Below the pieces are notes generated by a model. The model searched no databases. It was not told where the DNA came from and saw nothing but the letters and a program-made list of their open reading frames with translations. A DNA stretch of 61,879 bases, filler included, from Hausera hauseri (taxonomy: Eukaryota), in the NCBI GenBank assembly GCA_046269625.1. It is 12 parts of 12 records of this genome, joined end to end, with 100 filler letters (N's around TTAATTAATTAA, not from the genome) between each part and the next. Parts side by side here need not be neighbours in the genome. Positions count along the whole stretch, not along the records: positions 8,889 to 13,962 come from JBJURY010344045.1; 11 more parts are not named here. The stretch is one strand, 5' to 3'. The stretch's first letter is position 1; the number at the start of each line of letters is the position of its first letter. Below are positions 3,768 to 52,479 of the stretch, piece after piece. Both the position numbers and the translations under genes were made by a program.

Positions 3768-4127
3768 TCATGGGGCAGCTTTTCTTTTACATTGGATTCC
3801 GCTACCCGAATGGTTGCCTGCCATGTGGCTCACCGCACCTTGCAGCAGTTTCGGAGCCGCTTGTTTGGCATGGTCTCTAAAGACTTCACCAACATTTCTA
3901 CCGACTAAAGCGTCCTGGGCGACTTGCAAGCCCGTACAAACGCCTTCCCTGAGCAGGGCTTTGCCTCCAGTCTTTAGCCATGGAAGCACCGTTTGACCCA
4001 AGCCGCTAAAGAAACTTCCAATCCTACTTCCTCTTTGATGTCTACCACCGACAAAGATGGAAATCCCATCTCCATTAAAAGTCTTCGTATGCCTCGGCGT
4101 TTCGATGCAAAGGGTATGTCTGACCAT
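3768..4127 (-). CDS. Polinton/adintovirus small Gly-rich core or membrane-active protein between penton and major capsid
   Basis: QRGSRIGSFFSGLGQTVLPWLKTGGKALLREG amphipathic segment, GxG motifs, basic C-terminus, typical gene position. Confidence 0.7.
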   Translation of the reverse strand: MVRHTLCIETPRHTKTFNGDGISIFVGGRHQRGSRIGSFFSGLGQTVLPWLKTGGKALLREGVCTGLQVAQDALVGRNVGEVFRDHAKQAAPKLLQGAVSHMAGNHSGSGIQCKRKAAP

Positions 4128-4129
4128 CT

Positions 4130-4613
4130 TTACTGGAAATCGACTTGTCTCTTCGTCCTAAAATGTAACGTCACCATCGATGTTTCGCCCATAAATAGGA
4201 TATTTTGTCCCAGTTCGTTGGTTAAAAGTATTTCCACAGTATCAAAGGAAAAACGGCTCAATGATAAGTAATGCGGCTTGTCGTAAATTCTAAACAATGA
4301 AGACAATGTTTTATCCAAAATAGGAACAGTTCGCAACAATGGGACCATGACATCTCCAACGGGTCTCGCGGCTACAAGATCAGAGTACACGTACATGTTT
4401 CGTATGTCGCTGTCGAGATTCAACGGGGATTCACCTACTAGTAGTGACTTGTTGTCTGCGATGCGTTGGGCTCCGAACCCAGCCATGCTGCTTAATTTGT
4501 CGCTGATAAAAACTGCGGCCTCTTTCACGTACCATTCCAACAGGATAGTTTTCTCGACTCGTTGATAGTGGACTCGAATTGGGGGCATCTTCATGAAACT
4601 ACCGAGCCGGCTG
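4130..4613 (-). CDS. Polinton/adintovirus penton (minor capsid protein), 5' end truncated by the contig end
   Basis: MYVYSDLV...VGDVMVPLLRTV...PHYLSL....FDTVEILLTNELGQNILF....VTLHFR, the typical penton C-terminal signature. Confidence 0.88.
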
Positions 4614-4713: not shown

Positions 4714-6172
4714 AGGTGGGATTGTTGTTGGTCTTTTGTATGATCCTCCTTCGGGTCTAGTTCTATCATTCATCAAACTTGGTATCCATCCGCTCCCACA
4801 TTTTACAAAGTTTTCTACGGTATCTCGTAATACCTTAACTGTCACTTTTATATTTCGTTCAATTTCGTCCAAATTTTGTGTTTGGTAGTTAATCGCGATT
4901 ACCTTATATAACAAATAGGCGACCGCTGTTGCAACTTTTTCTCTAGTAATTCTTGTTGCAAACATTTTTTCTAATATATCTTGTTCATGTAATTCATTAA
5001 TTCTCTCTTCATTAATATTTTCGTAAAATTGTCTGCTAATTCTCAACATAACATAACGCATAGTCTGGAATAATTCATCGGGGATAGTAACTTGCATAAG
5101 GAACGATGAAAATGAGGTATGTAACTTTGCTAATAACGTTCTTAACAATGGGTCTATGTCTATTGATTCTGTCAATGTATCCGTTCCTGCCAACAGCAAA
5201 CGTCGTACTATTTCCTCATTCCCATCTCTCTTATTTCGGATATCACTGATTTTCGTTCCTTTTGGCCTTCCTCTTTTTTTTCTCAGTTTGTACTGCGACA
5301 CTCTGAGTATCACATGGTGGTTGTTCTACTACGTCCGATGGTTGCATTTCCTTCATTATATTATTTATCGTTTCCCCCGCTCTTGCGTCCGGATGTATCT
5401 CAATTATCGTGAGTGGGTTATAATTCTCACTTCTACAGCCAATACTTGATAATTTATCGTAGCTATATAACGTCCTTCCATAAAAATGTAACCCGTATAC
5501 TTTGTCCTTATAGAACGGTTCTAACTCTTCAATTTTTCCTCGCAACGTCAATATATCATCCTTTTCGTTCATTCTGATGGCTCTCACGTCTTGACTTTTT
5601 TTATCGTTATTCTTACTGCTTCGTTTCTTCCCTTTTCATCCTTAACCGCCTTACCTAATATCGTCCGTGCTATTTCTCTTATCGGACTGATATCGTGGGC
5701 GCGTAGCAATAATTGGAATATAATTTCGTTTATTTTAACTACAGATACTTTCCCTTTCATTAATTTTAATATCGTACTTGTCGCTTGGTTTACATCGACT
5801 ATGTTCTCAGGATCAATAGCAATGACTGCTTGAATAATATCATTCTCAGCATCTAAATCTACTTCTATATCATGTATCACCTGTTCAATCACGGTTTCAT
5901 CAAATAACTTTGTAGGCTGCGCTTCTTTTTCACTTCCCTCCGATGCTGATTAGCTATGCTTACTTCTTCGTTCTCTTTTCTTTTTTTCCACATCAGTTTT
6001 CGCCACAGAGGTTTCTCTGGATTCCACATCTATTATCTTTTTGTTACCTTTCTTTCTTCCTTGGCTAGGTTTTCCTCCTTTTGACTTTTCCTCCAACACA
6101 GATACTGTTTCCCCTTAATCTTTTCTGTTGAGTTTTATAATCTCTTAGCTCCATATCTAACTGCATTCTCAT
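4714..6172 (-). pseudogene. Decayed long ORF (track ORFs 5584-5892, 5243-5587, 4666-5313 joined at poly-A frameshifts) with an AT-hook and a Bcl-2-like domain
   Basis: Frames switch at A-runs near 5596 and 5275; KKRGRPK AT-hook; EKMFATRITREKVATAVAY...VLRDTVENFVKCGSGW has BH1-to-BH2 spacing. Confidence 0.55.
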
Positions 6173-6337: not shown

Positions 6338-6900
6338 TTAGTATTCAAACAAATCATGAATTTTTGTCTGTATCACCCCGATATTGCAGAATGCACTTAT
6401 AAACACTCCATGGGCAATGTCACAGGTAACTAACTGATGATCGGCTCGAAATAGATTCCTTGTCAACAGATTTGATGTTATCTTTTCATGTTCAGCTCGA
6501 GACTTACAGAACACTGACGAAGCGCTACCAGTAATGAAATGAATTCGCGGGTATGGTATCAGACTTGAGCCGAGTTGAGTTAGATCATTTTTGATTGTGC
6601 TTTCGAATCGCAGTGAAACGGTAATATTACTAAACATATGAGATAAAAGACGACTGATATTGTTGAATGTGGGATAATTAACGTCCATAAGATTAGCACA
6701 TACGTTAAATAAGGCTTCACTGTTGAAAAGATTCGTAACATCAGATGAATCTATATGTTCAGCATCGACAAGTTGGAATTATACGGTTTAATAGCCACAC
6801 AGAGAACTGGAGTGGGAAATATTGTCATTTCGTATCTCGTTAATTTCTAATAATTGAGTATCATGGCATTCACCATTAACGATGTAGATGCCCTTTAAGC
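6338..6900 (-). pseudogene. Divergent alpha-tubulin-like fragment, intronless and disrupted
   Basis: EMTIFPTP...IKPYNS, then shifted NSEALFNVC...YPTFNNISRLLSHMFSNITVSLRF...NDLTQLGSSLIPYPRIHF, versus alpha-tubulin PTYTNLNRLI.QIVSSITASLRF...DLTEFQTNLVPYPRIHF. Confidence 0.85.
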
Positions 6901-7112
6901 TCAGCAGACAGTTGCTGACACGATTGAATACTGCACATTTTACAAATGATAAAGGCTGTTTGCGACTTCAGAGAAATGTGACCGATTACGAACAATTTTA
7001 TCTACATTTTTACAATATCATGTTGAGTACAGACGTTGCACAGAACTAGTGTAGTTTCCAGGATAAGTGGTAAATTGTCTTGCCAATACATTTACGAGAG
7101 CAGGAATGAGTT

Positions 7113-7420
7113 TTATGATAAGAAATTTTCCAGATATTTATTTTTGTATCTCGTCATGAGTTGTAAGTATTTCACAGCCTGATGAACGAATATTTCATTT
7201 TGGCTTTGAAGCATTTCAAGAAACGTTGACCAAACGGAAACTCGGTCATCATGAAGCTCAATAAAGTACTCAAGAATTGTAGTTCGAACCGAAAGAACTA
7301 TCATGTGAACAACGCCTCTGTTCTCTGTGTCACGAATTTGTATATTAGCTCCAAGTGACATAATGGCTTTGATTGTTTCAAGAGCCCCGGCACTGACAGC
7401 AAGAAGGATTGGAGTAAACT
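7113..7420 (-). pseudogene. ANKAR: Ankyrin-repeat fragment resembling ANKAR (ankyrin-armadillo junction)
   Basis: TPILLAVSAGALETIKAIMSLGANIQIRDTENRGVVHMIVL...VSVWSTFLEMLQ resembles ANKAR TPLLLAATSGALDTI..L.SIGAN...VWKTLVEMLQ; fragment only. Confidence 0.7.
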
Positions 7421-7439
7421 TAACGATATTTCGAGTTTG

Positions 7440-8310
7440 TATATTTTTCCATTCCGAATATTCCATCGTTTTCACCAAATGTGAAACGACGAGTTCGATA
7501 GATCGTGGAACATATTCATCAATACGACCTCAGTAATCGATAATAACCATTTCCAGCAATTTTGCAGCATAGCTTTCGTAGATTTCATTGCTCTCTTGAC
7601 TGTTAAATACGATTTGGCAGATTTCGTAAGTCGTATTGATTTTATTACAATCGGCAACGAAGGTGTTTTTGTCAACTGTAATGTAGTTGGTTAGCAACGA
7701 CATCATCTCCCAAATTTCATCGGGTTCGTTTTGGATGTTCGTCTTCAAGAAGAACAATACTTGCTACATTGTCGGTGTTGCTCTACATACGGTTAAATTT
7801 GACGCAAGAGAATAAACTTCTTCGTAAAATTTAAGACGTTCTTTGTGAATATTACATGGATGATTGAAACAACAGCCGGTTTCAATGCTGAAATGATCGT
7901 TTCATTTTCTTCCATGGCTTTAGTTATTGTCTCAACAGTGCTCAAAATTCCCATGACAATGAGTTCTTTGTTATCGTCGATTTCACCCTCATTGCGAATT
8001 GATTCAATTGTCGACTGGAGATGAACGGTCATATCCAAAGCAATCAGAATAATTTCGTTGTTAAAAGTCGAAATGAGAGTGCAAAGCGTCATTCAATTCA
8101 TCAATTTGTTTTTCTCGAAGTAAAGTGAGAATGTTGGAAACTAAATTATTCAAATGTAGTGCTAAATTTGGTTTTGCTTCATCGCTCTTTTCCGGCAAAA
8201 TATCACATAGAGAATTAGCCGCCATGATTATTACTGGCAATTCTGAATCGCTGGAAATCGTATGGACAATGTTGTGAATCATATTCCGAAACAACGTCAT
8301 TCTGATAAAT
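7440..8310 (-). pseudogene. IPO7: Importin-7/8-like HEAT-repeat fragment, intronless and frameshifted
   Basis: LPVIIMAANSL, IALDMTVHL, MGILSTVETI, LLTNYITVD, YAAKLLEMVII match importin-7 MPVKVEAAIAL, IAVEMTQHL, MGILNTIDTL, LLHNYVTVD, HAAKLLEVIIL in order. Confidence 0.82.
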
Positions 8311-8639
8311 AAGAACGTGGCAATGATTGTCGAAACCGGTAAATGTCAATTTGCTACCATCTTTGTTGTAGCTCATTGAATCAACTTTGATTCCCGATTA
8401 TGTCGACGACAAACTCGGTATTTTTTTGTCTCCGGAATCGTAGATGTTTGATTTGAAGTCGGTAAGTTTCATTTGATGTCCAACCAAGTGGGCCAGAGGG
8501 CGCCGGCCGCTGTGGGCACCACAGTTGTCCTTAATGTTGAATGAGTTTTGCCTCCATTCGGTCTAATTTTGAAAGGTCCCTGAAATTGATTCACCAATTT
8601 CGTATATACGGAGTGAGTCATAATTCATGGTGAATTTTA

Positions 8640-8788: not shown

Positions 8789-9651
8789 NNNNNNNNNNNN
8801 NNNNNNNNNNNNNNNNNNNNNNNNNNNNNNNNTTAATTAATTAANNNNNNNNNNNNNNNNNNNNNNNNNNNNNNNNNNNNNNNNNNNNGGATTATCTCAG
8901 GTGAAACGAATCGAATAATAGTATCGGTTGCTACGGAGGAAACAAAAGAGGCCACAAGGAAAGCTAAAATAGATCAATGTGTAGGGCGGATTGTGGGAGT
9001 TAGAGATGCAACAATGTATTTCGAGTACTTGCAAAACGGACAAAGACAAGGAACAATACGATAAAAATCTAGTACCACCCAGTGAGATCGCATCAGTTAT
9101 CGCGAAACAAAAGCGTCCAGTCAACAGACCGCGAAAAATACGAGAAGAAATTGATTATAATGCCGATTTAACTAGAGAATTGAGGCAAATGTCCATACCT
9201 AACTTTAGTAGAGAAAATGAACAGCTAAATGAATTTATGAAAAATTTGATACTCATAGTAAACCTGTGAGACGAAATATTAGACGAAAAAGAGATATCTA
9301 TATTAAATGCAGCTAGAACAATGAAAAACTTTCTCTGTAAACTATCGAGAAGCTCCTTGAGCGATGGAAGGGATGTTAGAGGGAATTATGGTAGAGAACA
9401 CCATAGAAGAATTAAGGAAAGTGCTACTGTATTTGGCCATTAAAACAAATCCAGCTTGAGAAAATGAATTTAACAAAGCCACTAGTCTAGTGCGGAAAGC
9501 TGCCAGGAAATTACCCCGAGAAGTAAACGGGTCTAAATTATTCGAAAAAGAACAAGAGCATCAAAATGGACCCTCACTTAACGATAGTAATGGTATATTC
9601 AAAGACATGTTGCGAAGTTTAAACAGAGATAATCGGTGAAACGAACCAAAC

Positions 9652-11450
9652 TTGATAATTAATTTCCTAACTGTGATGATGTTAATAAGACAAATGGGAG
9701 AGGTTACCATATATGACTGTGACAAGTTCAAACTTGGCCAAAAATATTCATTGATGGATTTAGAAATATGCAAAGACGCGAGGCCACATAGATTAGAAAC
9801 AAAAGAAAAAAGCTACGTACTGTATCAACAACAAGAGCTAGTCTCATTAGACGGGATAGAATGTATGCTGCGACGATCTCGCAGTATCTTCCATTGTGAG
9901 CTAATACACAGACATTCATCTATAATCAAGCCAACGACCCCACTAATTCCAATGAACTTAGAACGCCAGCATTGTTAACAAGGTAGGGAGATAGGCAGGT
10001 TAAAATGGAATGGTATGGAAGTAGAAATGCAGCAAGAAAAAATAATCAGAGCATATAAAGTAGCAGCCGGAAGATTAGATATGTATACCGGACACTGTAA
10101 CGGTGCAGAATACGGTACTGGAAATGGATTAGAACCAAATATAGTGGTTGTGGATTTCTGTGAAACCGAGATGGGCACATATAAAGTGATGTTTCATAGC
10201 GTTACTAAGCTGTACAAGGAAAACCAAAAGTGCCAAATCCAAGACGGCACTTGTGTTTTTAGAAGTTAATTAGTAATTTTGGAACCTCCAGCCAAGACCG
10301 ATTGCAATTTTAGTAAAATTAAAGAACTTAAGTTTAATGAAATGACAGGAAAATGTTATGTAAGTAGTACGGATACTAACTCGTAAATGCTAGAAGATGT
10401 AGCTGAGCATCCCACACCTACCATATTAATTTCCGATACTCATGGGTTAAAATTTGTAAAGAAAGATGTACTCACAAGATGCGATGTAGTAATGTATGCC
10501 ACTAATTATGAAGCGTTCTTTGTAACTGAGCCTGAGACAAATGCCAAAACGTTCAAGCTTGAGACTCCAGATATTCAAATTGAGGATTATTTGAAAAATA
10601 GAGACTATTATTTCTACAACAAAGGACAGGCTGGAATAGCTGAGTTATACCACAAAATGATAACGAATGACTGCAAATTAGACTTAGAAATCATGAGAAC
10701 CAAACTGGATTTAATATATGCCAATCCCGAGCTAGCATTATCAATATTTCCGATGAAGGAAGGCGTTTTTCGTCGAGTAACTGGAGAAGTCCTACTGACT
10801 TATGAATGCGAGAAAAAAGATGTACCCATTAATGTGGAAGAGAAGAGATGCACACAAGAACTTCCGATAATATATCAGGACATGCCGATATTAGTACTGC
10901 CAATTACTAGAGTATTACTGTCAAATTCCACCCAACCGACAATTCTGAAAGATTGTAAACCTAGTCTAGGAGAACCCATGTTTAGACGTAGCTTACCAAA
11001 CGGTGGTATAATTACGCCGCCCATTAAGTTAACGGGAACGAACTTAATAGAAGTAATAACTAATAATAAGTTTCAAGATACTGCAGCAAAAGGCATTTAC
11101 CGACCAAAAGAAGTGGAGGCATTCAGACAATTTCTCGCTTTCCCAGGCCAGCGCACACATGAACTAAACAGAGCTATGCACACGATACTAGAAGATTCAC
11201 GTTATTAAGCGAAATGGGAATCGTTACTTTGTGTTAACTACTGTCAAAAAGTAACTACCGAAATATTGTATAAAATTTTCGGAAGGTTTCTAATATCCGG
11301 ACAAGCCGCATCAGGATTACTTCCAATTTATTTCTTAATTCACCTGGTTAAAGCGATAATTCAAGCGGTCATAAATGTATACGAGATCCTCACTATAACA
11401 GGATTCTAATGTAAAATTTTAACAGCTATATCACATCTTTCAATAAATTG
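9652..11450 (+). pseudogene. Chuvirus-like (class III-type) envelope glycoprotein with signal peptide and C-terminal membrane anchor
   Basis: Hydrophobic leader then IYDC...YSLMDLEIC; NDCKLDLEIMRTKL..ANPE..EGVFRRVTGEVLLTYEC..RCTQELPI..LPITRVL; KGIYRPKEVEAFRQFLAFP; read-through gives FGRFLISGQAASGLLPIYFLIHLVKAIIQAVINVY. Confidence 0.8.
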
Positions 11451-12149
11451 CTAAAGGCTTACGAAGAAAATAGATGGAAAGCGGATATGGAACGATATGT
11501 TGGCTATCATAATTGAAAACGTAAAAGGAGACACATTTAGTTACAAACGCACATTTATAAATGTCAAGACACGAAGAGATAACCCTGATGATGATGAGCC
11601 TAAGGGAGGAGACGCCGTCTCCAAGATATACAGACACAGAAACTATTCAGTTATAAAACCACTACTACTAATGCTACCGCCAACTGTACCGATATATGAA
11701 GACTGTGAAAAACAATCTATGAGCTCATATCAAACAGATATCTATATAATACCGTTCAACCTTGAAGATCCTTATTAAGGAGCAAAACATTATGGTATAT
11801 TACGTAAAGTTAGCGAAACGAAAAGAACACCTGCTCTATATCGTCATTTAACTCTCGACGACCATGGAATAATCTATTCACCAAGAATATCCAGGCCGAA
11901 AGAAATACGATCCACATTCTCCAAAGACCATGAGACGCAGAGTTTTAGGAATCAGGAAATACAGCCGCCAGTTAGGAAGCAGGAAACGGAAAACGTTAAT
12001 TGTACGAACAATGAACTGTACCCAAATGGAGAGCTAAGACAGTTAATCGACCAGCCAGTAGCGACCACTGAAGTTAGAATTAACGGTTATAAGGTGTTGA
12101 CAATTCAACAACCAAAGAAAGCGCCAAATTACTATGGTACAATAATCGA

Positions 12150-13962
12150 AGGTAGACCCAACGCGAAAATTTAGTTGGAAGATGGGGAAGTCTACGCATT
12201 GATAGACAGAGGATCCGAGATATCACTAATAAAACATGACTCAATATTGCAGTTCCTACCAAAACAATTATACCCCTTTAGAACAACAGATCCAGGAAGT
12301 ATTGAAGCTTTTGGACAGTCATCGAAAAGCAAATTCCGGTGGAGGCCAGAAATTTGCATAATTGGGCAATTTTTTCATCACGAATTTTTAATAATGTAAC
12401 AGTTAACAGACGACGTAGTTTTAGTACACGATCTGTGGAGGCAATTACCTAATGTAGCAATAGACTTTCGTTCAGGGAAATTAATGGAGCTCGGTCCGAT
12501 AAAAGGAGTTAAGACCACCAAAGATAGGCAATTTGGAGAAGTATGGATTCCAGTGGACATAAATATTAACATATGGTCAGATCTTTAAGATGACAACCAA
12601 CCAGTATATTTTGAGCCAAAAGAATCCTTAAACCCTAGCACTGTACTCAGTAATGTATTAACGAAAGTGTCAACGGGTCATGTGCCAATCAGAATAGCTA
12701 ATAACGCGCCGACCGAAATTAAATTGTACTCCCATACTACTTTGGGTCACACTTACAGAGTATTATCAATAACTATCGACGAAAAATTTTACAAATGTGC
12801 GGAATTATCACGTAATGTCAATATTAAATTCTCACCGGAATCATACTTTCGTTTTTATGAACTACTTTGCAGCTGTAGTTCAGTCGTCGCAAAAGACGAA
12901 GAAAGTATTGGTAGAGCTAAAACCCTGAGATTAGCAATTCCGCTTAAGAAAAAGCCGGGCTGGAATGACGAAATTGATCTAAAAGACTAAAAGATGCCAG
13001 ACAGTATCCTTTTTCTCACTCTTTAAGGCTTGAGACAACAAAGGAAGTTGAACGTATGCTAAAGGCTGACATAATTAAACCGAGATATAGATCTTGGTAC
13101 GCGCCCATACTTATGGTTAAAAAGAAAAGTACTACAAAACATCGATTTTGTATCGATTATCAAGCGTTAAACACCCTTATTATGAAGGATTCCTTACATT
13201 ACCATCAATAAAGGAAGCCCTGGATAGACTCGCTGCAGAAAAATGGTTTACCACGCTAAACTTGCAATCTGGATATTGGCAAGTAGAAATAGAGGATGAA
13301 GATCGCTATAAAACCGCACACTACAGAGTATACTAATTTAACATTATGCCATTTGGGATAACTACCGGATCAGGCATCACTACTCGAAATAGGAAAAAAT
13401 GTTCGTGGGATTGGAAAACGCGATAGCGTACTTGGACGACATAATAATCGCATCAAAAACGGAAGAAGACTTAAAGGGTATCGAGGACACCCGCATGAGA
13501 GTGGAGCAAGCAGGATTGAAACTGAATCCTAAGAAATGTAAACGGGCTCAAAATGCAGTATCCTATCTTGGACATATAGTTGGAGAAGGAGGATCGAAAC
13601 CCGACAAGTCACTGTTAAATAAAATATCAGACTGTATGGAACCTCTGAACCAAAAGGAATTAAGATATTGGTTAGGTTTATGTCAGTATTATGCCACTTA
13701 TGTACCTGACAATTCGAAGATAAATGCGCCATTATACCGTTTGCTTAAAAAAGGAATTAAAAGGAAATCGACCGACGTCAAGCAAAAGGCTTTCGATTAA
13801 ATGAGAAAAATTTTAACTAGCGAACCAGTTTTAAGATATCCTAATTTTAACCTACCGTTTATAATTAAAACTAACGCCAGTAAAGAAGGCATTTGATACC
13901 ATTTTGCTCAGAAACGAGAAGATGAAGAGGTAGATCATCCTATGGCTTATGGAGGACGATCA
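12150..13962 (+). pseudogene. pol: Ty3/Gypsy pol: aspartic protease, reverse transcriptase, start of RNase H
   Basis: ALIDRGSEISLI (DTG mutated), APILMVKKK..RFCIDY, LNLQSGYWQV, AYLDDIII, GLKLNPKKC, YLGHIV, LTSEPVLRYPNFNLPFIIKTNAS. Confidence 0.93.
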
Positions 13963-14062
13963 NNNNNNNNNNNNNNNNNNNNNNNNNNNNNNNNNNNNNN
14001 NNNNNNTTAATTAATTAANNNNNNNNNNNNNNNNNNNNNNNNNNNNNNNNNNNNNNNNNNNN

Positions 14063-14540
14063 CGCTCTGAATGGAAAGAAGGACATCTTGTTAAAATTCG
14101 TAAAAGGTAGATCTTGGCGACTGCGCAAACTATAAAGAAACCACCCTGATATCTATACCAAGGAAAGTTTTAAACAGAATAATCCTAAATAAAATAAGAG
14201 ACACAGCTGATACACAAGCGGTGGATCAACAAGCTGGCTTCCGCAAAGGGAGATCCTGTATAGACCAGATCACAACACTGCGCATTGTTGTAGAACAGTC
14301 TCTAGAATGGAATTCCCCTTCTATGTTAACTTCATTGATTACGAAAAAGCATTTGATAGTGTAGATAAAGAAACACTATTGAAACTGCTTCGACACTATG
14401 GAGCACTAAATAAAATAATCCCTATCACAGAAAATACACACGATGGCATGAGTTGCAAGAAGATGCATGAAGGCCAACTTACAGTCTTTTCAAGTGAATA
14501 CTGGAGTTAGGCAAGGATGCTGCTGTCGCCGCTTCTCAAT
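14063..14540 (+). mobile_element. RTE-clade non-LTR retrotransposon RT fragment, disrupted
   Basis: QQAGFRKGRSCIDQITTLR, FIDYEKAFDSVD, GVRQGCMLSPLL. Confidence 0.88.
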
Positions 14541-15383
14541 AGAAAGAAGCTTCAGAGAACAATGTTAAAAAGGTAAACTTTGTATACCTTGCTACATTTG
14601 TGATCCCTTTCCTTGTCAGACAGCTTTAAAAGCAGAAAATGCTGGCTATTGTCCCACAGAACAGCTTTTCATATGGCTGAATTTACCATGTTTGACTTAC
14701 CAATCATGTCACTACTGGAACTTCAAACAATACCTATATTATTTTGTCCTGTATCTTTGCAGCTACTTTATTTGTTCTTCATCTTATTGAACAATGAAGT
14801 ATTGAATGTATTGAATGTTTTAATGTCTCTGCATAGAATTGACATCCAAGTCACTAATAAAGTCTTCCGTTTATATTCTACATGTATCTTTGTATCTCAT
14901 CTTTGCCTCATGGCCTTGTCCCCTCTGACAATTTAGCAAATAAAATATTTTGCAGCAGTTAACAGCGAAATTGACCTGTAGGCTTACACTAAACACAACA
15001 CTGCACAAACTCTGTACGTGCTATGCCGAAACTATTTATATTTGTTTTTTTTAATGGTATGTTTGATTTGACATACATCAGCTGAACATCTTCATGACAA
15101 AAAATCTTCGCTGGCTTTTGTGATCAGTAAGGCAGGAAATTCTATCATGCAAAGAAATTAGCAGTTGAAAATTTAAATATGACAGTAAATGCAATTAAAG
15201 TATTTAACATTTAAAAAGAAATAGAATAAGTCACTGTGGCAAATTTTGTTAGATAAATTAATGAACAAATATAATTGATGTACTAAGAAAATAAATATAT
15301 AAACAGTCTGTATCCTGTCTACTTCACAGACATTCCCATTTGATGTTTCTCACCTGCTGGCACAAGGAGTAGAGCTGCAACCC

Positions 15384-15911
15384 ATGTCATCTACCAGGCT
15401 CAGGTACCCATATCCATTTCTGGATTCAGTTTTAGCTACCCAAAACTCTACACTGAAATCTACTGTGAAAGCGTCACATTTTTCAGCTAAACCAAGTGAA
15501 GGTATAGAAGACTATAAGATCAACTGCCCTGCACAAGCTGTTGTAAATTTACCTCAAATTAGCAATGATGGGAAAGAGCCAACTCCTTTGTCCAAAACTT
15601 CATCAAAAGCATCAGGATTCACAGCTGTGTCGGGAATGAGGAATATGTGCTCATTCTGCAAAAGAATCAGAGAACGTGAACAATTTTGTGCATCACATTC
15701 TCAGAAAGATCCAAATGGAATTGTGATTTGTCCAATCCTAAGAGCCTCTATTTTTCAACTGTGTGGGGCGACTGGAGACAATGCTCACACACGGTCTTAT
15801 TGCCCACTTTCAATTGAGAATTCACGCGCAAAGCATTCCGTGCACAAGAAATGTGGTAATGGTTATGTAGGATACAGCCATGGTCGTAGATTTCTAGGCA
15901 ACAGTTTTTAA
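15384..15911 (+). CDS. nanos: Nanos-family CCHC zinc-finger protein, possibly the last exon (candidate acceptor AG ending at 15329); one zinc ligand substituted
   Basis: CSFC-x12-H-x10-C-x7-[F]-x2-C-x7-H-x4-C with PILR and CGATGDNAHT signatures. Confidence 0.85.
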   Translation: MSSTRLRYPYPFLDSVLATQNSTLKSTVKASHFSAKPSEGIEDYKINCPAQAVVNLPQISNDGKEPTPLSKTSSKASGFTAVSGMRNMCSFCKRIREREQFCASHSQKDPNGIVICPILRASIFQLCGATGDNAHTRSYCPLSIENSRAKHSVHKKCGNGYVGYSHGRRFLGNSF

Positions 15912-25645: not shown

Positions 25646-28600
25646 TCACCTCATTAGTTTCTCCAGAAACATTTCCACATTGTACTCTTTTTCATATTCT
25701 TCAACAGAATCATAAGCATTCTCCAAATTAGACAGCACAGCCTTCAATCCAGTTTTTGGTATCTTTGGTTTAGTTTGACTCTGTACAGAATCTCTGTTCA
25801 TGGAATCGAGAAGATTATCCGACTGCATGGAAGCCAACTGCTGATTATCCGTACTGACGACAGAATTCGCGATGTGCAACTTAAACTGCTGTAAATTCAT
25901 TATCTTCTCCTCAATGGAGTCAGCAGTGATCAATCGATAAACATTCACTGTTCTCCTCTGACCGAGTCTATGTGCACGATCCATCGCCTGCAGATCTCTC
26001 ATTGGATTCCAGTCATGTTCTACAAAAATGACTGTATCCGCTGACGACAAATTCAATCCCAGACCACCGATACTGATCGTCAATAACAAAATATCCACTG
26101 ATGGATCCTCATTAAATCTATTCGACACAAAATCAATTGTCATAATAACACGCAATACTTGTCGACAATTAACTGTCGTTCCTTCACCGATATTGATCCG
26201 TCCAGTCTCAAATAAGACGCCTTTGGAATATGGGACTTTAACATTCGTTCCACCAATGAAATCATTGATTTTGATTGGCAGAAAATGAGCACACGGTGAT
26301 TGGATACAACAGCAGCAGAACATATGATATCGGGTGACGGTGATGACGTCACATAATCATCGATACCGATGCCGCAGTCGAATATTAATTGTCTAAATGA
26401 ACATGAGAGGAATGTTAAAAGAATCAGATACATGGTAATTGTCACCTTAGTGCAACTAATTTCCCCGACAATTCTACATCGTCAATTGACTGGTGACAAT
26501 CGATCAATTCCTTCATGATGGACTCGTTCATTGGATGTTTATTACACAATACCAATGATGGATGATTACACACCAATCGTAAATAATGCAGTGCCTGAAA
26601 TACGTGTTTCCTCTCGTCGGTATTTATTATGACAGATTCGTCATCAATCAAATGTGAAATGTCATTTCCGGCAGTCGATTGAACGAAACACGAGTACAAT
26701 CGGGATTGGATGGGTGTCATTGTGCACATGTAGTCCTGTATGATTTTCGGTGGTAATTCATTCAAAACATCCTCCTTAACACGCCGCAGTAAAAATGGCA
26801 ACACCTGTCTATGAAGAGAATCTAATGCAACAGTCCCTTGTTCACTGTCGACTTTCTTCCCGCTACTCGAACTATTTTGTCCGAGATATTTGCCGTATTT
26901 CCGATGGAACTCCGAATGATTTCCCAGTAAACCCGGCATAAGGAAATCGAATAATGACCATAATTCGGCAACTCGATTCTGAATCGGTGTTCCTGTCAAC
27001 ACAAGCCGATGTCGAGCGAACACAGATTTGGCGGCCAAGGCAACTTTACTTTTGTGATTTCGAATAAGGTGGCCTTCGTCAAGAACTACATAATTCCACA
27101 ATCCTGTTTTGCCATCTGGACGACATAGATGATCGACATCATTTCTGAGAATTTCGTACGACGTTATCACAATCTGGTATTTGGTGAATGACGGTACCAA
27201 CGACTGCCTGTACTCCGTTGTCCCATTATAAACAATACACGTAAATGACGGAAAACACACATGCATCTTAATTTCCTTTTCCCAATGAGACGTTAACGTT
27301 GTCGGACAAATGATTAGCGATGGCGGACATCTCGTCGGATCCCTCTGATACTGCCCCACGATAATGGAAATTGTCTGTAATGTTTTCCCTAAACCCATAT
27401 CATCAGCAAGAATTCCGTGGAGTCCATATCGACTAAGAAACGACAACCAATTAACACCCTGCTGTTGATAATACCGCAGCGATGTGGAAATGCAACCACC
27501 GACACAATATTCCGCTACAGAATCTGGTCGCAACAGACCTTGAATAAATTCCCGATTCTCCTTCCGTTCGGCAATTCGTCTATCCGTCAATATGCTGACA
27601 TCGGCACCAGATTGTTCCAGTGGCATCAGATTCAGAAGTTGTGAGAAAATCAGAGTGGCCACTTTACGAACTCGATCAATAGGTGCATTCAAGGCACGTA
27701 ACACCGATGGCAAAGTATAGATAACAAGAGCTAGTCTGTACCCGAGTAATCCCCGCTGAAAGACCAAATAAAGCATTTCGATAATTCCCAAGCAAAAAGT
27801 CTCGTTAGAATAGTTATCGAGTTCTGGCAACGCCAAACCCAGTAAAATGGAATCGACAAGTTCACGACTAATGTCAACATTCTCAGATGTCAAAGGAATG
27901 AGCAGAGAAGTCATAATTCGAGCACTCCAATGTCGGACAATATTATTCTTCTGTGACAAACCATGTTCAAAAACGCACAGTGCAAAACGATTGAAATCAA
28001 TATCACACAATTTCGATAAACTTATCAAATACGGAATACACACATCCATCGACTGCAGTCCGCCTAACAGATCCGGGATTTCTTTCTCACTCAATCGTTT
28101 CAATATTTTCACAGGATTATTGTAAATGGCATCGATAAATAACGATAAATAATCCTTACAATCAGGCAGCGTCAATTGGCCAATTCGTAAACACACTTTC
28201 TCCAGAACGAGTCGACAACCTCGATATTTTATAAACGACGGTGAATCGAAATTCAATTCATCCGGGACGAATTCTTGACCGGGAAATGTTTCTCGACCGA
28301 ATTGATCAATTTTGTGCAGAATGACAACACAATCTGGATCTGTTATGCCGCCCAATGAATCAATAGAATCCGACAAGGAACCGATAACGTTACGCAGTAA
28401 CTTCCCGATAGATGTCATAAGATTCGGTGGTGTCTTGTTAATGAGCAATTGGGAAAGAGCCATGGCCGATTCAGTCTGCAAAGTCAAACGTGGATCACAC
28501 CGGACGACATCCATTAACGGACGAATGAGTGGAGTCAATTTATCCGGCAACCAATGCCACGTCAGAAGACCTCGACCCAACGCCACTTCAACCATTCTCA

Positions 28601-29462
28601 AAAGATTCTGATGGTATTGTGAACACAAATCAACAGCAGTTCGGGCACATGAAAAACACGGATCTGCAGCGGCATCGATTGACATTAACTTAGAATACAT
28701 CTCATTGGTGACAAGTGACTGACATTGCGGTAAATTCGGATTGACGACCGATGATGGAATGGACACGGGGATTTTTCTTTCGCTGTAGACTTTAATGAGA
28801 TCTTTACAGGACTTTATCATTTGGCGGAACATGGGCAACAATTCCTGATAGTAAATGGGTTCAGACAACGACGTCAACAACTGTTGTCGTACAGAACATA
28901 AGATCCGTTCGTTTTCCATTGTCCAATCAGCATCGGCCGACCAGTACGCCAGAATAGTTGCGGCAACAAATCGCTGTGTAGCCAATCGTTCACGGAGATG
29001 CGTTTGGGAAATAATCGTACCAAGGATATGATCAGCCAACGGAGGAATGAATGACAATTTCCGACAAAGATGAGCCAATGCCTTACAGGCTGTGATACGG
29101 GCTCTGAGAACAGACTCATCTCGTAACACGGAATCACCTTCAGACATGTATGATTCTCTACCGCCAATGTATAGATCTTGTGGCATGTGATATTTATTGT
29201 CTGCCATATCATTGTCTGTGTCCGGCATAATGAGCAGGTCCTGAGAGAAACTCAATCGAGCAGGCTGCATGGCACAACACATCATAATATCAAGTCTCTC
29301 AATACAACTCTGTGTCAATAATTCACAACTAATTTTGTCAATAAACATTATGTTTGTTTTTCTCATGTCGTAGTAATTACAAGTCAAAATGTAATTATGA
29401 ACATTATATTTTTGACAGTTTATTGTTATCTCGTTCCATAATGTCATTACTGCATTAATCAA
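25646..29462 (-). CDS. BTAF1: BTAF1/Mot1 SNF2-family ATPase, 5' part incomplete; exons about 29328-26446, 26392-26159, 26117-25646
   Basis: LRYYQQQGVNWL, GILADDMGLGKTLQ, VLDEGH, LTGTPIQN, LPPKIIQD, HRVLIFCQ, GGLGLNL, HDWNPMRDLQAMDRAHRLGQ; GT-AG introns at 26393-26445 (53 nt) and 26118-26158 (41 nt) restore the frame. Confidence 0.93.
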
Positions 29463-30783
29463 CTTAACGAACTAAAATGAAACATGTGAATTAACCAAAT
29501 TAATCACAACAATTGCAGTGTATTGTAATTCAGCTTACTGAGATGAAAATTACAATCAACCAGTTTTTTGTTAGATAATTCTAGATATGCGGTAAAGTGC
29601 ATTACAGGTCACAGAGTGCGTGAGTATCAACATTCTGTTTACTTCATTATTTTGTATTCATTTGCAATGGCAAAGTTAATTAAAATGTTCATACAAATGG
29701 GAAATAATGCACTAGAGCTTTCTCTGCCATTTTTGTGTAGGAATTCCACATCAAGATTGGAATTTCTGTGACTGATTTCTTATCCAACATGTTTCTTGCT
29801 CCCTAATTATTCATCGGTGCACAAATTCATCGTGGCGAGTGTCAGGAACTTTATCAACTAACGATCTGAGTTGATTTAACACATGATTAAGTTCTCATTT
29901 CCTATACGAAAAATATCAGCTAAATTCATTTTCAGAGACAAACGATCTCATGACATCGGATGACCGGTGTGTCACCTGATGATGGTGAATAATACAATCA
30001 AAAGCTGCAATTTGTGTTTATTTATTTATGTTTGCAAAATTCTGTAAGCACAAGTTTATCATCGACAGTAACAAGAACTAATACAGTTTCTTAAAACTCT
30101 GTGATTTTTTTTTTTATTTGGACCTTTCTTTTCCAATCTTCCAACCGGCCCGTGACAGTTTTCAAAGAATCAAAGTTATGATCATTGTATGATCTCCTTA
30201 ACGTTACCCTCTCCTTAGCATTCCTGACAAAAGCTCACATTATGACCAAAAACCAGACCAGACCAGGAACAACTCACCCCAAGTAAACGGGAAGAGTTAC
30301 ACATGTGCACACACAAACTGATCTGTATGTTATACAAAACACAAAACGGATTTGTGAATGCTTTGATGTCGTTGACATTTGAAAGCTAAAGGAAATAAGA
30401 CAACGAATTTAACAACAAATGCTAACGTTGATGTATAATTTAACAAAAAATATGTAGATAACAGACGTTACTTTCTGGCTGAAATGGCTCAAAGAAGGGT
30501 GAAAAATGTAAATGAAAAGTTACCAATAGACTTGCATGTTTAAAAAGATCATTAAAATGGTACCTCGTTTCACGAACTTAATCCGTTTTGAAAAGTTGTT
30601 CGTGAGCCAAATTGTCCCTGGAACATATCAACTCTTCCCATAAGAAATAATGTAAATTCCACATAATGTCTTCTTGACCCCCCNNNNNNNNNNNNNNNNN
30701 NNNNNNNNNNNNNNNNNNNNNNNNNNNTTAATTAATTAANNNNNNNNNNNNNNNNNNNNNNNNNNNNNNNNNNNNNNNNNNNN

Positions 30784-33700
30784 ATGGCGTGGTCTTCCAT
30801 GATATGGTCTTTCATGGTGTTGACTTCCATAGTGTGGTCTTTCATGGTGTGGACTTCCATGGTGTGGCCTTTCATTGTGTAAACTTCCATACTACGGTCT
30901 TTCATGGTGGGGACATCCATGAAATGGTCCTTCATGGTGTGGACTTCCATCGTGTGGCCTTTTATGGTGTGGAATTCCATACTATGTTCTTTCATGGTGG
31001 GGCCTTCCATAATGTGGTCTTTCATGGCGTTGACTTCCATAATATGGCCTTTCATGGTGTGGACATCGATACTATGGTCTTTCATAGTGTGGACTTCCAT
31101 GGTGTGGGCTGTCATGGTGTAGACTTCCATACCATGTTCTTTCTTGGTGGGGACTTCCAGATGTGATATTTTTAGGTGGAACTTTCAATGATGTGGTCTA
31201 TCATGGTGTGGACTTTCATGGTGTGGCCTTTCATTGTGTGGACTTCCATACTATGTTCTTTCATGGTGGTGACATCAATGATGTGGTCTTTCACGGTGGG
31301 GACTCCCATGATGTGGTCTTTCATGGCGTGGTCTTCCATAATATGGTCTTTCATGGTGTTGACATCCATAGAATGGTCTTTCATGGTGTGGTCTTCCATA
31401 CTATGGTCTTTCATAGTGTGGACTTCCATGGTGTGGGCTGTCATGGTCTAGACTTCCATACCATGTTCTTTCTTGGTGGGGACTTCCAGATGTGATATTT
31501 TTAGGTGGAACTTTCAATGATGTGGTCTATCATGGTGGGGACTTTCATGGTGTGGCCTTTCATTGTGTGGACTTCCATACTATGGTCTTTCATGGTGGGG
31601 ACTTCCATGATGTGGTCTTTCATGGTGTGGTCTTCCATACACTTAACTTTTATGGTGAGGACTTCCATGATGTGGTCTTTTATGGTGTGGACTTCAATGG
31701 CGTGGCCTTTCATAATGTGGATTTCCATACTATGTTCTTTCATTGTGGGCATTTCCAGATGTGGTATTTCTAGGTGGGGCTTTCCATGATGTGGTTTTTC
31801 AAGGTGTGGACTTCCATGGTGTGGTCTTTCATGGTGTCGACTTCCATACTATGATCTTTCATAGTGTGGACTTCCATGGTGTGGGCTTTCATGGTGTGGA
31901 CTTCCATAATATGGTCTTTCATGGTGGGGACTTCCATGATGTGGTCCTTCATGGTGTGGACTTCAATGGCGTGGCCTTTAATGGTGTGAACTTCCATACT
32001 ATGTTCTTTCATGGTGGGGATTTCCAGATGTGGTATTTCTAGGTGGGGCTTTCATGATGTGGTCTTTCAATGTGTGGACTTCCATGGTGTGGCCTTTCAT
32101 GGTGTGGACTTCCATACTATGGTTTTTCATGGTGGGGACTTCCGTGATGTGGTATTTTATGGTGTTGTCTTCCATACTATTATCTTTCATGGTGGGGACT
32201 TCCATGATATGGTCTTTCATGGCGGGGTCTTCCATAATATGGTCTTTCATCGCATAGACATCCATAGAATGGTCTTTCATAGTGTAGACTTCCATACCAT
32301 GTTCCCTCTTGGTGGGGACTTCCACATGTGATATTTTAAGGTGGGGCTTTCCATGATGTGGTATATCATGGTTTGGACTTCCATGGTGTGGCCGTTCATT
32401 GTGTGGACTTCCGTAGTATGGTCTTTCATGGTGGGGACATACATGAATTGGTCTTTTATGGTGTGGACTTCCATGGTGTGGCCTTTCATGGTGTGGTCTT
32501 CCATACTATGGTCTTTCATAGTGTGGACTTCCATGGTGTAAGCTTTCATGGTGTAGACTTCCATACCATGTTCTCTCTTGGTGGGGACTTCCAGATGTGA
32601 TATTTTTAGGTGGGACTTTCCATGATGTGGTCTATTATGGTGTGGACTTTCATGGTGTGGCCTTTCATTGTGTGTACTTCCATACTATGTTCTTTCATGG
32701 TGGTGACATCAATGATGTGGTCTTTCACGGTGGGGATTCCCATGATGTGGTCTTTCATGCTGTGGACTTCCATATTATGGTCTTCATGGTGAATACTTCC
32801 ATGATGTGGTCTTTCAGGGTGGGTACTTCCATGATGTGGTCTTTCAGTATGTGGTCTTCCATACTATTATCTTTCATGGTGGGGACTTTTATGATGTCGT
32901 CTTTCATGGTGTGAACTTCAATGTAGTGGCCTTTAATGGTGTGGACTTCCATACTATGTTCTTTCATGGTGGGAATTTCCCGATGTGGCATTTCTAGGTG
33001 GGGCTTTCCATGATGTGGTCTTTCAAGGTGTGGACTTCCATGGTGTGGCCTTTTATGGTGTGGACTTCCATACTATGGTCTTTCATGGTGGGGACTTCCA
33101 TGATGTGGTCTTTCAAGGTGTGCACTTTTATGGTGTGGCCTTTCATGGTGTAGACTTCCAAACTATGGTCTATCATAGTGGGGATATTCATGAAATGGTC
33201 TTTTATGGTGTGGACTTTTATGGTGTGGACTTCTATACTGTGGTTTTCAATGGTGTGGACTTCCATGGTGTTGCCTTTCATGGTGTGGACTTCTATACTG
33301 TGGTCTTCCATGGTGGGGACTTCCATGGTGTGGCCTTTGATGGTGTGGACTTCTATATTGTGGTCCTTCATAATGTGGAATTCCATGGTGTGGCCTTTCA
33401 TTGTGTGGACTTCTATACTGGGATTTTTCATGGTGTGGACTTCCGTGCTGTGGCGTTTTATGGTGTGGACTTCTACACTGTGGCTTTTCATGGTGTGGAC
33501 TTTTATACTGTGGTCTTTCACGGTGGGGACTTCCATGATGTAGCCTTTCATTGTGTGTACTTCTATACTGTGTCTTTCATGGTGTGGACTGCCATGGTGT
33601 GGCCTTTCATGGCGTGGATTTCCATGGTGTGGCCTTTCATTGTATGGACTTCTATACTGTGGTCTTTCATGGTGTGGACTTCCATGGTGTGGCCTTTCAT

Positions 33701-35294
33701 GGTGTGGACTTCTATAATGTGACCTTTCATGGTGCAAACTTCCATACTATGGTCTTTCATGGTGGGAATTTCCATTATGTGGTCTTTCATAACGTGGTCT
33801 TCCATGATATGGTCTTTCAGGGTGGGTACTTCCATGATGTGGTCTTTCATGGTGTGGACGTCCATAATGTAGTCTTTCATGGTGCGGACTTCCATGATAT
33901 GGTTTTTCATTGTGTGGACTTCCATGGTGTGGCCTTTAATGGTGTGGACTTCCATACTATGTTTTTTAATGGTGGGGACTTCCAGATGTGGTTATTCTAA
34001 GTGGGGCTTTCCATGATGTGGTCTTTCATGGTGTGGACTTCCATGGTGTGGCCTTTCATGGTGTGGACTTCCATAATACGGTCTTTTATGGTTGGGACTT
34101 CCATGATGTGGTCTTACATGGCGTGGTATTCCATGATATGGTCTTTCATCGTGTTGACTTATATAGTGTGGTCTTTCATGGTGTGGACATCCATATTATG
34201 GTCTTTCATGGTGGGTCATCAATGATGTGGTCTTTCATGGTTTGGACTTCCATGGTGTGGCCTTTCATGGTGTGGACTTCCATCCTATGTTCTTTCATGG
34301 TGGGGACTTCCATGATGTGGTCTTTTGTGGCGTGGTCTTCCATGATATGGTCTTTCATGGTGTTGACTTCCATAGAGTGATCTTTTATGTAGTGGACTTC
34401 CATACTATGGTTTTTCATGTTGGGTCATCAATGATGCAATCTTTAATCGTGTGGACTTCCATGGTGTGGCCTTTCATTGTGCCGACTTCCATACTATGGT
34501 CTTTCATGGTGGAGACATCCATGAAATGGTCTTTCATGGTGTGGACTTCCATGGTGTGGCCTTTCATGGTGTGGACTTTAATACTATGTTCTTTCGTGGT
34601 GGGGCCTTCCATAATGTGGTCTTTCATGGCGTGGTCTTGCATGGTATGGTTTTTCATGGTGTTGACATCCATAAAACGGTCTTTCATGGTGTGGACTTCC
34701 ATGATGTGGCCTTTCATGGTGTGGACTTCCATACTGTGGTCTTTCATGGTGTGGTTTTCCATGGTGTGGCCTTTCATGGTGTGGACTTCTATACTGTGGC
34801 CTTTCATGGTGTGGATTTCAATACTATGGTCTTTCATAATGGGGACTTCCATCATGTTGTCTTTCATGGCGTGGTCTTCCATGATATGGTCTTTTATGGT
34901 GTTCATTTCCATAGTGTGGTCTTTCATGGTGTGGACTTCCATACTAAGGTCTTTCATGGTGGGTCATCAATGATGTGGTCTTTCATAGTGTGGACTTCCA
35001 TGGTGTGGCCTTTCATAGTGTCGACTTCCATACTATGTTCTTTCATGGTGGGGACATCCATGAATTAGTCTTTCATGGTGTGGACTTTCATGGTGTGGCC
35101 TTTAATGGTGTGGACTTCCATACTATGTTCTTTCATGGGGATGTCATCAACGATGTGGCCTTTTGTAGTGGGGACTACCATGATGTAGTCTTTCATGGTG
35201 TTGATTTCCATAGTGTGGTCTTTCATGGTGTGGACTTCCACACTATGGTCTTTCATGGTGGGTCATCAATGATGTGGTCTTTCATGGTGTGGAC
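30784..35294. repeat. Tandem minisatellite with a 30-bp unit (about GGTCTTTCATGGTGT GGACTTCCATGATGT) made of two related 15-mers; fills the whole contig
   Basis: About 150 directly visible degenerate copies; responsible for the many repetitive ORFs on both strands. Confidence 0.97.
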
Positions 35295-35499: not shown

Positions 35500-38400
35500 T
35501 TTACAATGCCATATGTCTGTGAATTATTGTGTGGATTCCATCGCTCAGGATCTGCCTCTTGTAGTCCGTATAATCTAGGCTTTTCTTATGTAGAGTTACT
35601 GTTTAGATGTTATGATCCCTAGATTGGATTTTTAGCATTTCCGATATGATGTAAGTCTGCTCCTGCAGAACTGGCAAATGGTTTTGAAAACTGATCTTCT
35701 TAGCCAATGAAGCCCTTTAAACCACTTTTGCTTAATTCTTTATTTGGCCACATACGTCTATGGCATACATTTTAGATCTGAGATCCACAAATCGCAAGAT
35801 TATTGTTCCATTCACCTCGTCTTTTAATTTTTCTAGGACATTCTTATTGGCAATTCAATAGTTGGAATAATCCTTCGGATAGTCCGAGGTATTAATGGGT
35901 TAAGCCAACTGGACAAAGTCCTCATAAATGTCCTCTGTATGGATTTGATAGATGAAACTATCAGTATCCATATACATCATCTGCATGGACTTGAATTTGG
36001 GGCCCATGATGTCGTAATGGAAATGATACATTAAGGTCTTTGACAGATCGAGGATTGTCATACCCACATATATTGGCTTTTCGAATATCATTGCTGTTTT
36101 CAGAATATGGATGTCTACCAAGTTCTCAGTACATATAGTTCTGCTATGAAAGTTGGGCTTAGCAATAAGCTTCTTTGCCCGCGTCCAGTCATATACTAGC
36201 TCAATATTGATCCTATTGCGGATATTTCCCATGGTCTTTCCAAAACGCTGTTGTTATATAGTTTGAATTGACCTTTCTCAAAGTCGTTTTTGGCACTAGT
36301 CCACAGCTTCTTACTGAGATCTAAGTATGACTGCAGCCACATGAGCTGGTTGAACTGCATGGCTCTATGGATCTTGGTAATATGAAGTCCGTATCTAAGT
36401 GCCTTCTGGGGATTGATGAGGTGAACTACACACCTCTCCTTATTACCCAGATGACAGAGCAGCTTTCTCTGCTTTCCATGGGGAGGAGGCCTGCTCTCAG
36501 AGAGGAAAGGCAACTGTTGATGCCTAGCGTGGATTGAATCCGGATATTCCATATCTACCTCCAGTATGTAGCCCGTATCTCCACTGAGATCTAGTTCCAA
36601 TATAGAGAGGTTTTCAGGATTCTCGACTCATTTGAAGTTATCATATGGCAATGGGGCACTCATTGGCCATCCACAGAAGTTGTTGGAATGCAGGTATGAT
36701 ATATATGAGTATTCCTTTGTTGAGTCGTATTGGGCCACTTACTTATTATTTTGCCTCAATATACCGATGAATGGCCTGGCATATTCCGTCTCTAATGCCT
36801 CTGTCAATCATAAAGATCATATTATAATTCTTAATAATCTGCAGTCTGATACCAGTATAGCGCAGTATTACTGCCTAACTCATCCCTGGCGCCGTAAAGA
36901 AATGAGCCGGATTTAATGCATGACTCTTCATTGTAACATCCCTGAAATTATCAAAGACATCTGTCAGCAGCAGCACGTCCGTCGTGAGGTATATGCCGCT
37001 GTATTCCCCTAATTTTCGGCATTGAAATGCATGCCAAAGGTTCTAGGCATGCTGGTAGTCAGCATCACTAATATAGCAATCAGATAGGATATTGTAAAGT
37101 CCTTTTTGTCCGACAATTAAGTCTCATCCAGTGTTTCCCATGAAGTTATGTAGTCATAGGGAAACACGCCTTTCCTCTTGACTAGGTCAAAGTTAGTGGA
37201 AAAGAACCGCTTCGTCTCCTTGATTTCTTCTGCAGGGAGGTTCTTTACTAAACTGTCAAGTGAAGACGACATGAAATGAAAGCTGTCTATAAAGCGAAGT
37301 CGGATTTTGCCAACATGCTTAGTGAAAGTGATATATTTCGCCTCACTGTTGGGGATCATTATCAATGTTGCATAATCCTCTGACTATGAAATGGAAATCA
37401 TAGGCACTGAGATTATGGAACACTATTGGTACATATGTGCATGTTTTGCAGCGAAGATTGCAGTTGTTGCATGCTGCCCTCACTGATCCTTAACTTTCCA
37501 ATTTTCCTTGATGAAGGACTTGTAGCACAAGTAACATGATGTTGCCTTGCGCCATTCTTCTTCTTGTTTCCACGACATGCTCTTATTATCCTTATGCTGC
37601 TGGAGCATGTTTTCAAGCTTATGAGCCATGTCTTCAAGTCTCTTCATGAAATGTGCTGCGGCACCTGGATACCTGAATAGAAATGGATCACTGTCCAGTC
37701 CTTTGACATACATGCAATATGATGAAAGTTCATGGTATTGGTATGCCGTTGTGCTTCTCTGTTGAGGACTGGTAGTGCAGCTGTGAACTGGACGCAGAAT
37801 AGCCTCAAAGTCGCAATAGGTAACAATTGGGACCTTGATCTTCTTCTCGAACGCCTTGAATTCAATGTAGTTCTCCTTGGGAAATTCTGGCCTTGCACAG
37901 TAATTGTTGTTGCAATACATCTTGTGCCTTACGAGCTTGTCCACTGCTGAAATGAGATAGGCATCGCTTACATATCTCAATTTTCCCATGATTATTCGTA
38001 ATTTGGGATCTTACTAGACGTTCAAAATTCCTCATACAAACATAATGTTTCTTTTCTTCATCGCCTAGTAGGCGCAGATCCCTATGATCTTCCAATTTAG
38101 CATTACATATATGTGGAGGATATAATTTATCATCCTCATNNNNNNNNNNTCCAAAGATATTGGTTGATATGTTGTTGATTCGACTGAACTTCTTAATTTC
38201 ATCTAAGGATGAAGGGAATTTGATACATTGGAAGTCACAGTTGTGCTGCACATCCTTATATTGTCAAACTCTTGAAGCATTTTGTTGATCCAGTACGAGT
38301 TTTTATAGAATGGCATACATGAAACACATGTTGTCATTATTATGGACATTTACGCATGCTTTTTTATTAGCGATCAAATCAGAGACTTGAATATATGAAC

Positions 38401-52464: not shown

Positions 52465-52479
52465 AGAGGATGTTTTCGT

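Follow-up and report, generated by a model that had tools for sequence, protein, structure and literature searches.

Within a window of 61,879 nt from the genome of Hausera hauseri (assembly GCA_046269625.1), one contig very probably holds the central part of a Ty3/Gypsy (Metaviridae-type) element with GAG-ENV-POL layout, integrated into an animal genome and since decayed, a reading to which we assign a probability of about 0.85. The window consists of 12 contigs split by spacers of 44 N, TTAATTAATTAA and 44 N, and the element copy occupies a single contig (JBJURY010344045.1, positions 8889–13962, 5,074 nt), where a chuvirus-like envelope glycoprotein (Env) lies on the plus strand upstream of a protease, a reverse transcriptase (RT) and the start of an RNase H. 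Both limits of this contig abut such N-TTAATTAATTAA-N spacers, and therefore sequence beyond 8889 and 13962 is without physical linkage to the copy. The copy itself is dead, with a frameshifted RT, and comparison with its relatives establishes their domain order and single-chain layout, as well as the membership of the copy among them.

An earlier note on this sequence had proposed that open reading frame (ORF) pieces starting at 9652, 10015, 10387, 11497, 12175, 12667 and 13399 share one frame, reaching upstream of the Env signal to at least 9421, and all eight coordinates were indeed located in the same frame. Between 9361 and 12987 this frame contains 12 stops in 1,209 codons, the two remaining frames having 115 and 102, and none of 2,000 shuffles was as open (shuffle mean 86.9 stops); the A-rich strand skew is even across 9001–14000. 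A single frame thus joins the PF24664 glycoprotein, a 240-codon linker and the protease, but it does not continue into the RT, the first half of which (12999–13363) sits in two other frames and breaks continuity after the protease. The proposed upstream extension held, the frame being open from 9361 with 2 stops in 93 codons up to 9639, where 48 of 2,000 shuffles were equally open. This is weaker than for the linker (11452–12174), with 3 stops in 241 codons versus 15 and 23 in the other frames (0/2,000 shuffles), an openness comparable to that of the recognised domains.

The first part of the contig (8889–9360) contains coding-looking segments in two other frames (8891–9061 and 8985–9358), corresponding by position to a Gag-side accessory region and giving no Pfam, profile or Atlas match. 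The suggestion that a dUTPase-like segment at this end hints at a second, upstream protease module was rejected, since 8891–9061 was matched or beaten by 582 of 1,000 shuffles. There follow a putative domain (9361–9651) that shares the frame of the Env signal, is delimited by frame openness and is positioned as the Bcl-2-like domain of four relatives, and a decayed internal signal sequence (9652–9708), placed by its aligned position in 15 relatives and preceding the conserved [Y/F]DC with which Env begins. The glycoprotein ectodomain (9709–11304) contains 4 in-frame stops, and is followed by the membrane anchor (11305–11400, hydropathy peak 2.05, with one crossing predicted in the relatives), by an amphipathic segment of weak hydrophobicity that holds 1 stop (up to 11451), and by the in-frame linker (11452–12156, ~235 codons), itself defined by its openness. 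The linker showed no Gag, knuckle or protease signal and no detectable homolog, Gag being checked in all plus-strand frames, and neither a CCHC knuckle in any plus-strand frame nor a Gag capsid signal was found anywhere on the contig; the earlier note had described the lack of a knuckle between glycoprotein and protease. The retropepsin-type protease (12157–12456) has a degenerate active-site motif and scored 24.5 bits on the profile of the relatives, while the spacer domain between protease and RT that the relatives have in common (12580–12780), presumably dUTPase-like, scored 32.0 bits, with 0/1,000 shuffles in both cases. The RT (12999–13620) was recognised by tblastn of the relatives and by RVT_1 in three frame pieces (12999–13193, 13199–13363 and 13399 onward), and beyond it lie the connection domain and the beginning of RNase H (13621–13962; RT_RNaseH_2 E 6e-12, RT_RNaseH E 0.03), truncated at the contig limit. 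The order of glycoprotein, anchor, linker, protease, RT and RNase H given in the earlier note is confirmed.

The glycoprotein matched PF24664, the Monjiviricetes fusion glycoprotein, with E 7e-50 over positions 5–591 of 653. A profile of 62 glycoprotein sequences retrieved herpes gB in 38 of 39 PDB rows (~75 positions, best E 5.4e-4), and a PDB search with the glycoprotein alone gave chance matches only; Env would accordingly be classed, from the family profile, as a probable herpes gB-like fusogen of class III type. An unfiltered homolog search of 1.84 billion representatives yielded 472 matches with E ≤0.001, the best 150 of which were considered, and the best matches among those listed were long proteins with an internal glycoprotein. 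In a tree of 46 listed matches and the contig copy, 16 sequences, the copy included, form one clade with a support of 0.996, apart from the other 31 glycoproteins, which are mostly standalone. P0034, which carries DUF5641, a domain we take to be a BEL/Pao marker, fell outside this clade.

Env leads into a protease within one chain in 11 of the 15 other proteins of the glycoprotein clade, two of the remainder (P0015 and P0017) being fragmentary. Further relatives (P0156, P0397, P0399–P0402, P0404 and P0406) came from cluster look-ups and from a Pol search, the latter being dominated by multi-RT gene models, with PF24664 in 3 of 120 rows. Capsid, knuckle, Env, protease, RT, RNase H and integrase are found within one chain in P0021 and P0399, and a Gag capsid with CCHC knuckle is located upstream of Env in these two as well as in P0020 and P0018; the contig begins downstream of such a region. 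The order protease, RT, RNase H and integrase is complete in P0006, P0007, P0016, P0021, P0156, P0397, P0399 and P0404, and the contig displays the first three of these. Along P0399 (3,865 aa), a capsid with two knuckles is succeeded by a module of helical/ubiquitin-like type, then by the signal with Env and its anchor, by two proteases and the spacer, and by RT, RNase H and integrase; a further protease comes next, and the chain closes with a signal, ectodomain and anchor. P0399 is one of four sequences of 3,865 aa (P0399–P0402), the other three being 99.4–99.7% identical to it, and since their ORFs (~11.6 kb) almost fill contigs of 11.8–12.9 kb, they are not spliced gene models; four near-identical intact sequences suggest a recently active member. 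The single polyprotein with a fusogen ahead of the protease, which the earlier note had read from the decayed copy, is therefore present as one Gag-Env-protease chain in intact relatives. None of the 30 listed cluster members of the relatives bears an animal name, and one is filed under a bacterial metagenome-assembled genome (MAG). The closest relative, P0006 (HBK71150.1), carries the annotation of a protein from a Flavobacteriaceae MAG; most likely a contig with an animal retroelement was sorted into a bacterial bin.

The Pol half was placed independently using a 40-row tree of RT-RNase H sequences, comprising the copy, 8 Env-bearing Pols, 30 gypsy-type Pols and one discarded row from the window (contig 39690–48935, aligned at 21% and probably misframed). 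The copy grouped with all eight Env-bearing Pols (ultrafast bootstrap 97), among the gypsy-type Pols. A GP[Y/F] motif follows the integrase core in all seven relatives examined, in a region beyond the end of the contig copy. Troyka elements, which according to the available text of PMC12440569 have neither env nor a GPY/F motif, were rejected as an identity, given the presence of Env here and of GP[Y/F] in the relatives.

A chain in which Env precedes the protease calls for an even number of membrane crossings before the protease, and this is what a rough scan indicated, with the signal plus a single membrane segment that separates the ectodomain from the first protease in 14/14 relatives. The amphipathic segment after the anchor was below the insertion threshold in every relative, and an insert in P0156 adds two membrane segments, so that the total stays even. 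The [Y/F]DC start of Env was present in 16 of 18 scanned sequences, the remaining two being without that end. In the active form, one ORF would encode Gag and accessory domains, then the signal, the gB-type Env and its anchor, then one or more proteases, RT, RNase H and integrase, often ending with a second signal-ectodomain-anchor protein. Gag would be synthesised in the cytosol, after which the internal signal may direct Env into the lumen of the endoplasmic reticulum (ER), with signal peptidase cutting before the conserved [Y/F]DC. The anchor would halt transfer and return the chain to the cytosol, where the protease could emerge and liberate itself and Pol. The cut signal may keep the C-terminal part of Gag membrane-bound, thus coupling capsid to envelope, and particles would bud and then fuse with a target cell via the class III Env. 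In flaviviruses, alphaviruses and foamy viruses, internal signals pass a portion of the polyprotein across the ER membrane, with the cut signal tethering the upstream capsid protein; the proposed topology would work in the same way, a likeness of mechanism for which no homology is claimed. The contig copy itself is incapable of any of these steps.

Several observations weigh against a single-chain element with an internal fusogen, or against parts of its description. No long terminal repeat (LTR), primer-binding site, Gag or integrase was found on contig 8889–13962. P0074 has RT-RNase H placed before a partial Env, which may reflect decay or a different design, and the same two explanations apply to P0008 and P0019, which stop within ~30 residues past the anchor. 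The single-sequence model of the glycoprotein was poor, with a predicted local distance difference test (pLDDT) score of 33, and for this reason the case for a class III fold is made by sequence profiles. The membrane scan used a rough home-made insertion scale rather than DeepTMHMM or SignalP; on this scale neither signal nor anchor of the contig copy was above the insertion threshold, although hydropathy does detect the anchor, the signal of P0009 was also under threshold, and P0021 has an additional hydrophobic segment ahead of its signal. Finally, the non-Env rows of the RT tree, chosen out of a single search (31 of 119), were for the most part multi-RT gene models, and the tree was built without curated references from Nematoda endogenous retroviruses (NERV) or from flatworm, bryozoan, BEL/Pao, Copia or retroviral elements.

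The main rival to a single polyprotein is that the same element expresses Env and Pol mostly from separate messages or by recoding, through splicing, an internal promoter or read-through, with the ORF being a coding layout only. One chain imposes a 1:1:1 ratio of Gag, Env and Pol, which is generally unusual for retroelements, the Tor elements have an internal env promoter according to the available text of PMC4402516, and the early ends of P0008 and P0019 would fit such a scheme. Against this, 11/15 clade members have no stop at the junction, membrane parity is preserved even with the P0156 insert, and in the contig copy no ATG follows the stop at 9637 before the signal's hydrophobic core is reached. 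We consider split expression unlikely.

A different class of explanation invokes two adjacent or nested insertions, with an endogenous viral element (EVE) of chuvirus glycoprotein or an env end lying beside a Gypsy pol of other origin, or else an assembly chimera. The contig is short and without element ends, and the linker lacks a detectable homolog and has stops at both its ends, but that linker is open only in the shared frame, the junction is intact in relatives, and the Env and Pol halves each group independently with the same family. As the Env and RT-RNase H trees place the copy in one family, the chimera and two-element readings fall away, and we regard them as largely refuted and very improbable. 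A plain Chuviridae EVE, in which the glycoprotein would stand alone or accompany N or L genes, was ruled out, with the glycoprotein in frame with a protease and in its own clade apart from the 31 other glycoproteins. Slighter still are the odds of a BEL/Pao element of the Anakin type, in which an LTR retroelement has captured a chuvirus-like glycoprotein of this same family (Dezordi et al. 2020, available text of PMC7642597). Anakin has a BEL/Pao Pol with env placed after it, and its kind of glycoprotein goes with the standalone group as far as P0034, outside the clade, indicates; here Env precedes protease and Pol, the Pol groups with Ty3/Gypsy-type Pols, and the relatives carry GP[Y/F] after the integrase core.

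The relatives carry accessory domains on the Gag side. A helical domain is common to P0008, P0009, P0019 and P0020, where it ends 10–50 residues ahead of the Env signal, and to a piece of a sibling element on another contig of the window (4753–5163, minus strand, 42% to P0020). In the four relatives and the sibling this domain probably adopts a Bcl-2 fold, as suggested by agreement between sequence and fold comparisons, each test being weak alone. All five sequences matched Pfam Bcl-2, none of them reaching the curated cutoff (best E 2.4e-5), and a five-sequence profile found Bcl-2-family chains in 59 of the best 60 PDB rows (best E 0.002). A model of the domain (pLDDT 67) had Bcl-2-family chains as its top 20 VIA rows (Z 6.4–8.4; A179L best with Z 8.4, root-mean-square deviation 4.2 and 115 aligned; first unrelated row Z 6.4) and in 35/35 Foldseek rows, none at E ≤0.001; the five sequences were picked after an initial Pfam hint, and helical bundles can reach such Z by chance. 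Viral Bcl-2 proteins (A179L, BHRF1, CNP058 and KsBcl-2) were the top fold matches of the model, and the hydrophobic segment within 10–50 residues of the domain resembles a tail anchor, but identity is 5–12% and the domain is situated inside a retroelement polyprotein. What we take to be the BH1 motif, NWGR, is not kept. The Bcl-2-like domain and RT never occurred in one chain, P0009 joining the domain to proteases and P0020 to Gag. For the decayed contig copy, 220/1,000 and 314/1,000 shuffles scored as well as its upstream segment (9361–9651) against the five-sequence Bcl-2-like profile, no score above shuffles was obtained for the helical/ubiquitin-like module, and ESM Atlas gave no usable match for either the Bcl-2-like domain or this segment. 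Sequences upstream of Env in P0016 (~115–290) and P0019 (~370–790) are presumably exonuclease-fold-like. The sibling element (4714–5949, minus strand) displays a Gag-side region with a helical domain, a ubiquitin-like segment (5270–5596, a label deriving from Pfam E 0.03 on P0020), a GRP motif and the Bcl-2-like domain, and its contig stops at the point at which an Env signal would be expected.

Retropepsin repeats, 2–7 per chain, were found before RT and after integrase in P0156 (seven), P0010, P0009, P0011, P0397 and P0399, with C2H2 fingers between the repeated proteases and, in P0156, also ankyrin repeats. Four of seven chains extending beyond integrase (P0006, P0007, P0156 and P0399) have a signal and anchor there, and P0016 a signal only. 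Another contig of the window (49036–53331, minus strand) has the post-integrase layout of the relatives, with an integrase core and GP[Y/F] (52539–53330), a signal (52396–52464), an ectodomain and an anchor (51205–51297). The best six matches of this integrase are Pols of the Env family, with weak tree support (53), and this contig went undetected with a profile built for the second membrane protein (E 0.77). Further ORFs are located at 49763–50488 and 49039–49692, the former presumably DEDDh exonuclease-like and giving no Pfam match. A bolder and less probable reading is that this is a clade of enveloped Ty3/Gypsy elements. Their one polyprotein would pass through the ER four times and give rise to Gag, a ubiquitin-like module and, in some members, a Bcl-2-fold protein for which the signal of Env doubles as tail anchor; it would further supply the gB-type fusogen, more than one protease, Pol, and a second membrane protein, of type I, as the fusogen's receptor-binding partner. 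Such a retrotransposon would have both apoptosis control and a two-glycoprotein entry system.

The contig copy is a dead member of an already published kind of element, the gene order of which is known. Ty3/gypsy 'ancient errantiviruses' with GAG-ENV-POL order and an ENV of the HSV (herpes simplex virus)/gB type were reported from Nematoda, Bryozoa and Platyhelminthes (Chary and Hayashi, eLife 2026, PMC13524379), and the available text describes a chuvirus-like glycoprotein adjoining gypsy pol, with ectodomains between two transmembrane domains in some elements. The elements described here share with these the Ty3/gypsy Pol, the gB-type chuvirus-like Env and the position of env between gag and pol, and the layout that the earlier note considered unusual is genuine, but its order was already in print. 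The words 'polyprotein', 'fused' and 'single ORF' are absent from the available text of PMC13524379, the figures and GitHub ORF sets of which may show fusion or accessory domains, and 'Bcl' is absent from its preprint text. As cited in the same source, nematode NERV elements (Sacco et al. 2022, J Gen Virol 103:1739) have a flipped ENV-POL order, and thus resemble the present elements in having ENV ahead of POL. A literature search with thin coverage of subscription papers found no single-ORF wording for such elements and no retrotransposon-encoded Bcl-2 fold, and no description was found of repeated proteases or a post-integrase second membrane protein in them. The NERVs reportedly have a continuous gag-env-pro-pol ORF and are said to be nematode-restricted with other accessory ORFs; they are not known to carry a Bcl-2-like domain. 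The present family appears, from its sequences, to be a variant with accessory domains for which no description was found in the literature.

The remaining contigs contain both host genes and other mobile elements. A nanos zinc finger (15303–15911, plus strand, Pfam E 1e-19) is present and the host therefore looks animal; the adjoining 14104–14510 is presumably a LINE-like RT fragment. BTAF1/Mot1 (25646–29471, minus strand) has a 1,009-codon open stretch, and its divergence (58% to two proteins, 41–46% to named proteins) together with this stretch suggests a fast-evolving, intron-poor host. A further pair of decayed elements of gypsy type lies head to head on contig 39690–48935, one with gag-protease-RT (43490–45457, plus strand) and one with protease-RT-RNase H-integrase (46012–48558, minus strand). 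A 4.5-kb tandem array (30784–35294) has 15/30-nt sub-periods, a higher period of ~329 nt and pentapeptide-like repeats open in several frames. We take ORFs at 3768–4613 and 35900–39165 (minus strand) to be Polinton/adintovirus-like, including a DNA polymerase B-like stretch, with no Pfam match at 3771–4157, and decayed fragments at 6338–8345 (minus strand) presumably resemble tubulin, an ankyrin-repeat protein and importin.

The discussion of PMC13524379, in its available text, treats cell entry of gB-carrying elements as unknown and notes that herpes gB needs partner glycoproteins, and the second membrane protein after integrase offers a concrete candidate partner for the gB-type Env. The member with four near-identical intact 3,865-aa sequences, if recently active, offers a system for studying polyprotein processing. 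If the Bcl-2 fold in a retrotransposon polyprotein is true, it would mean that LTR elements took up an anti-death device of large DNA viruses.

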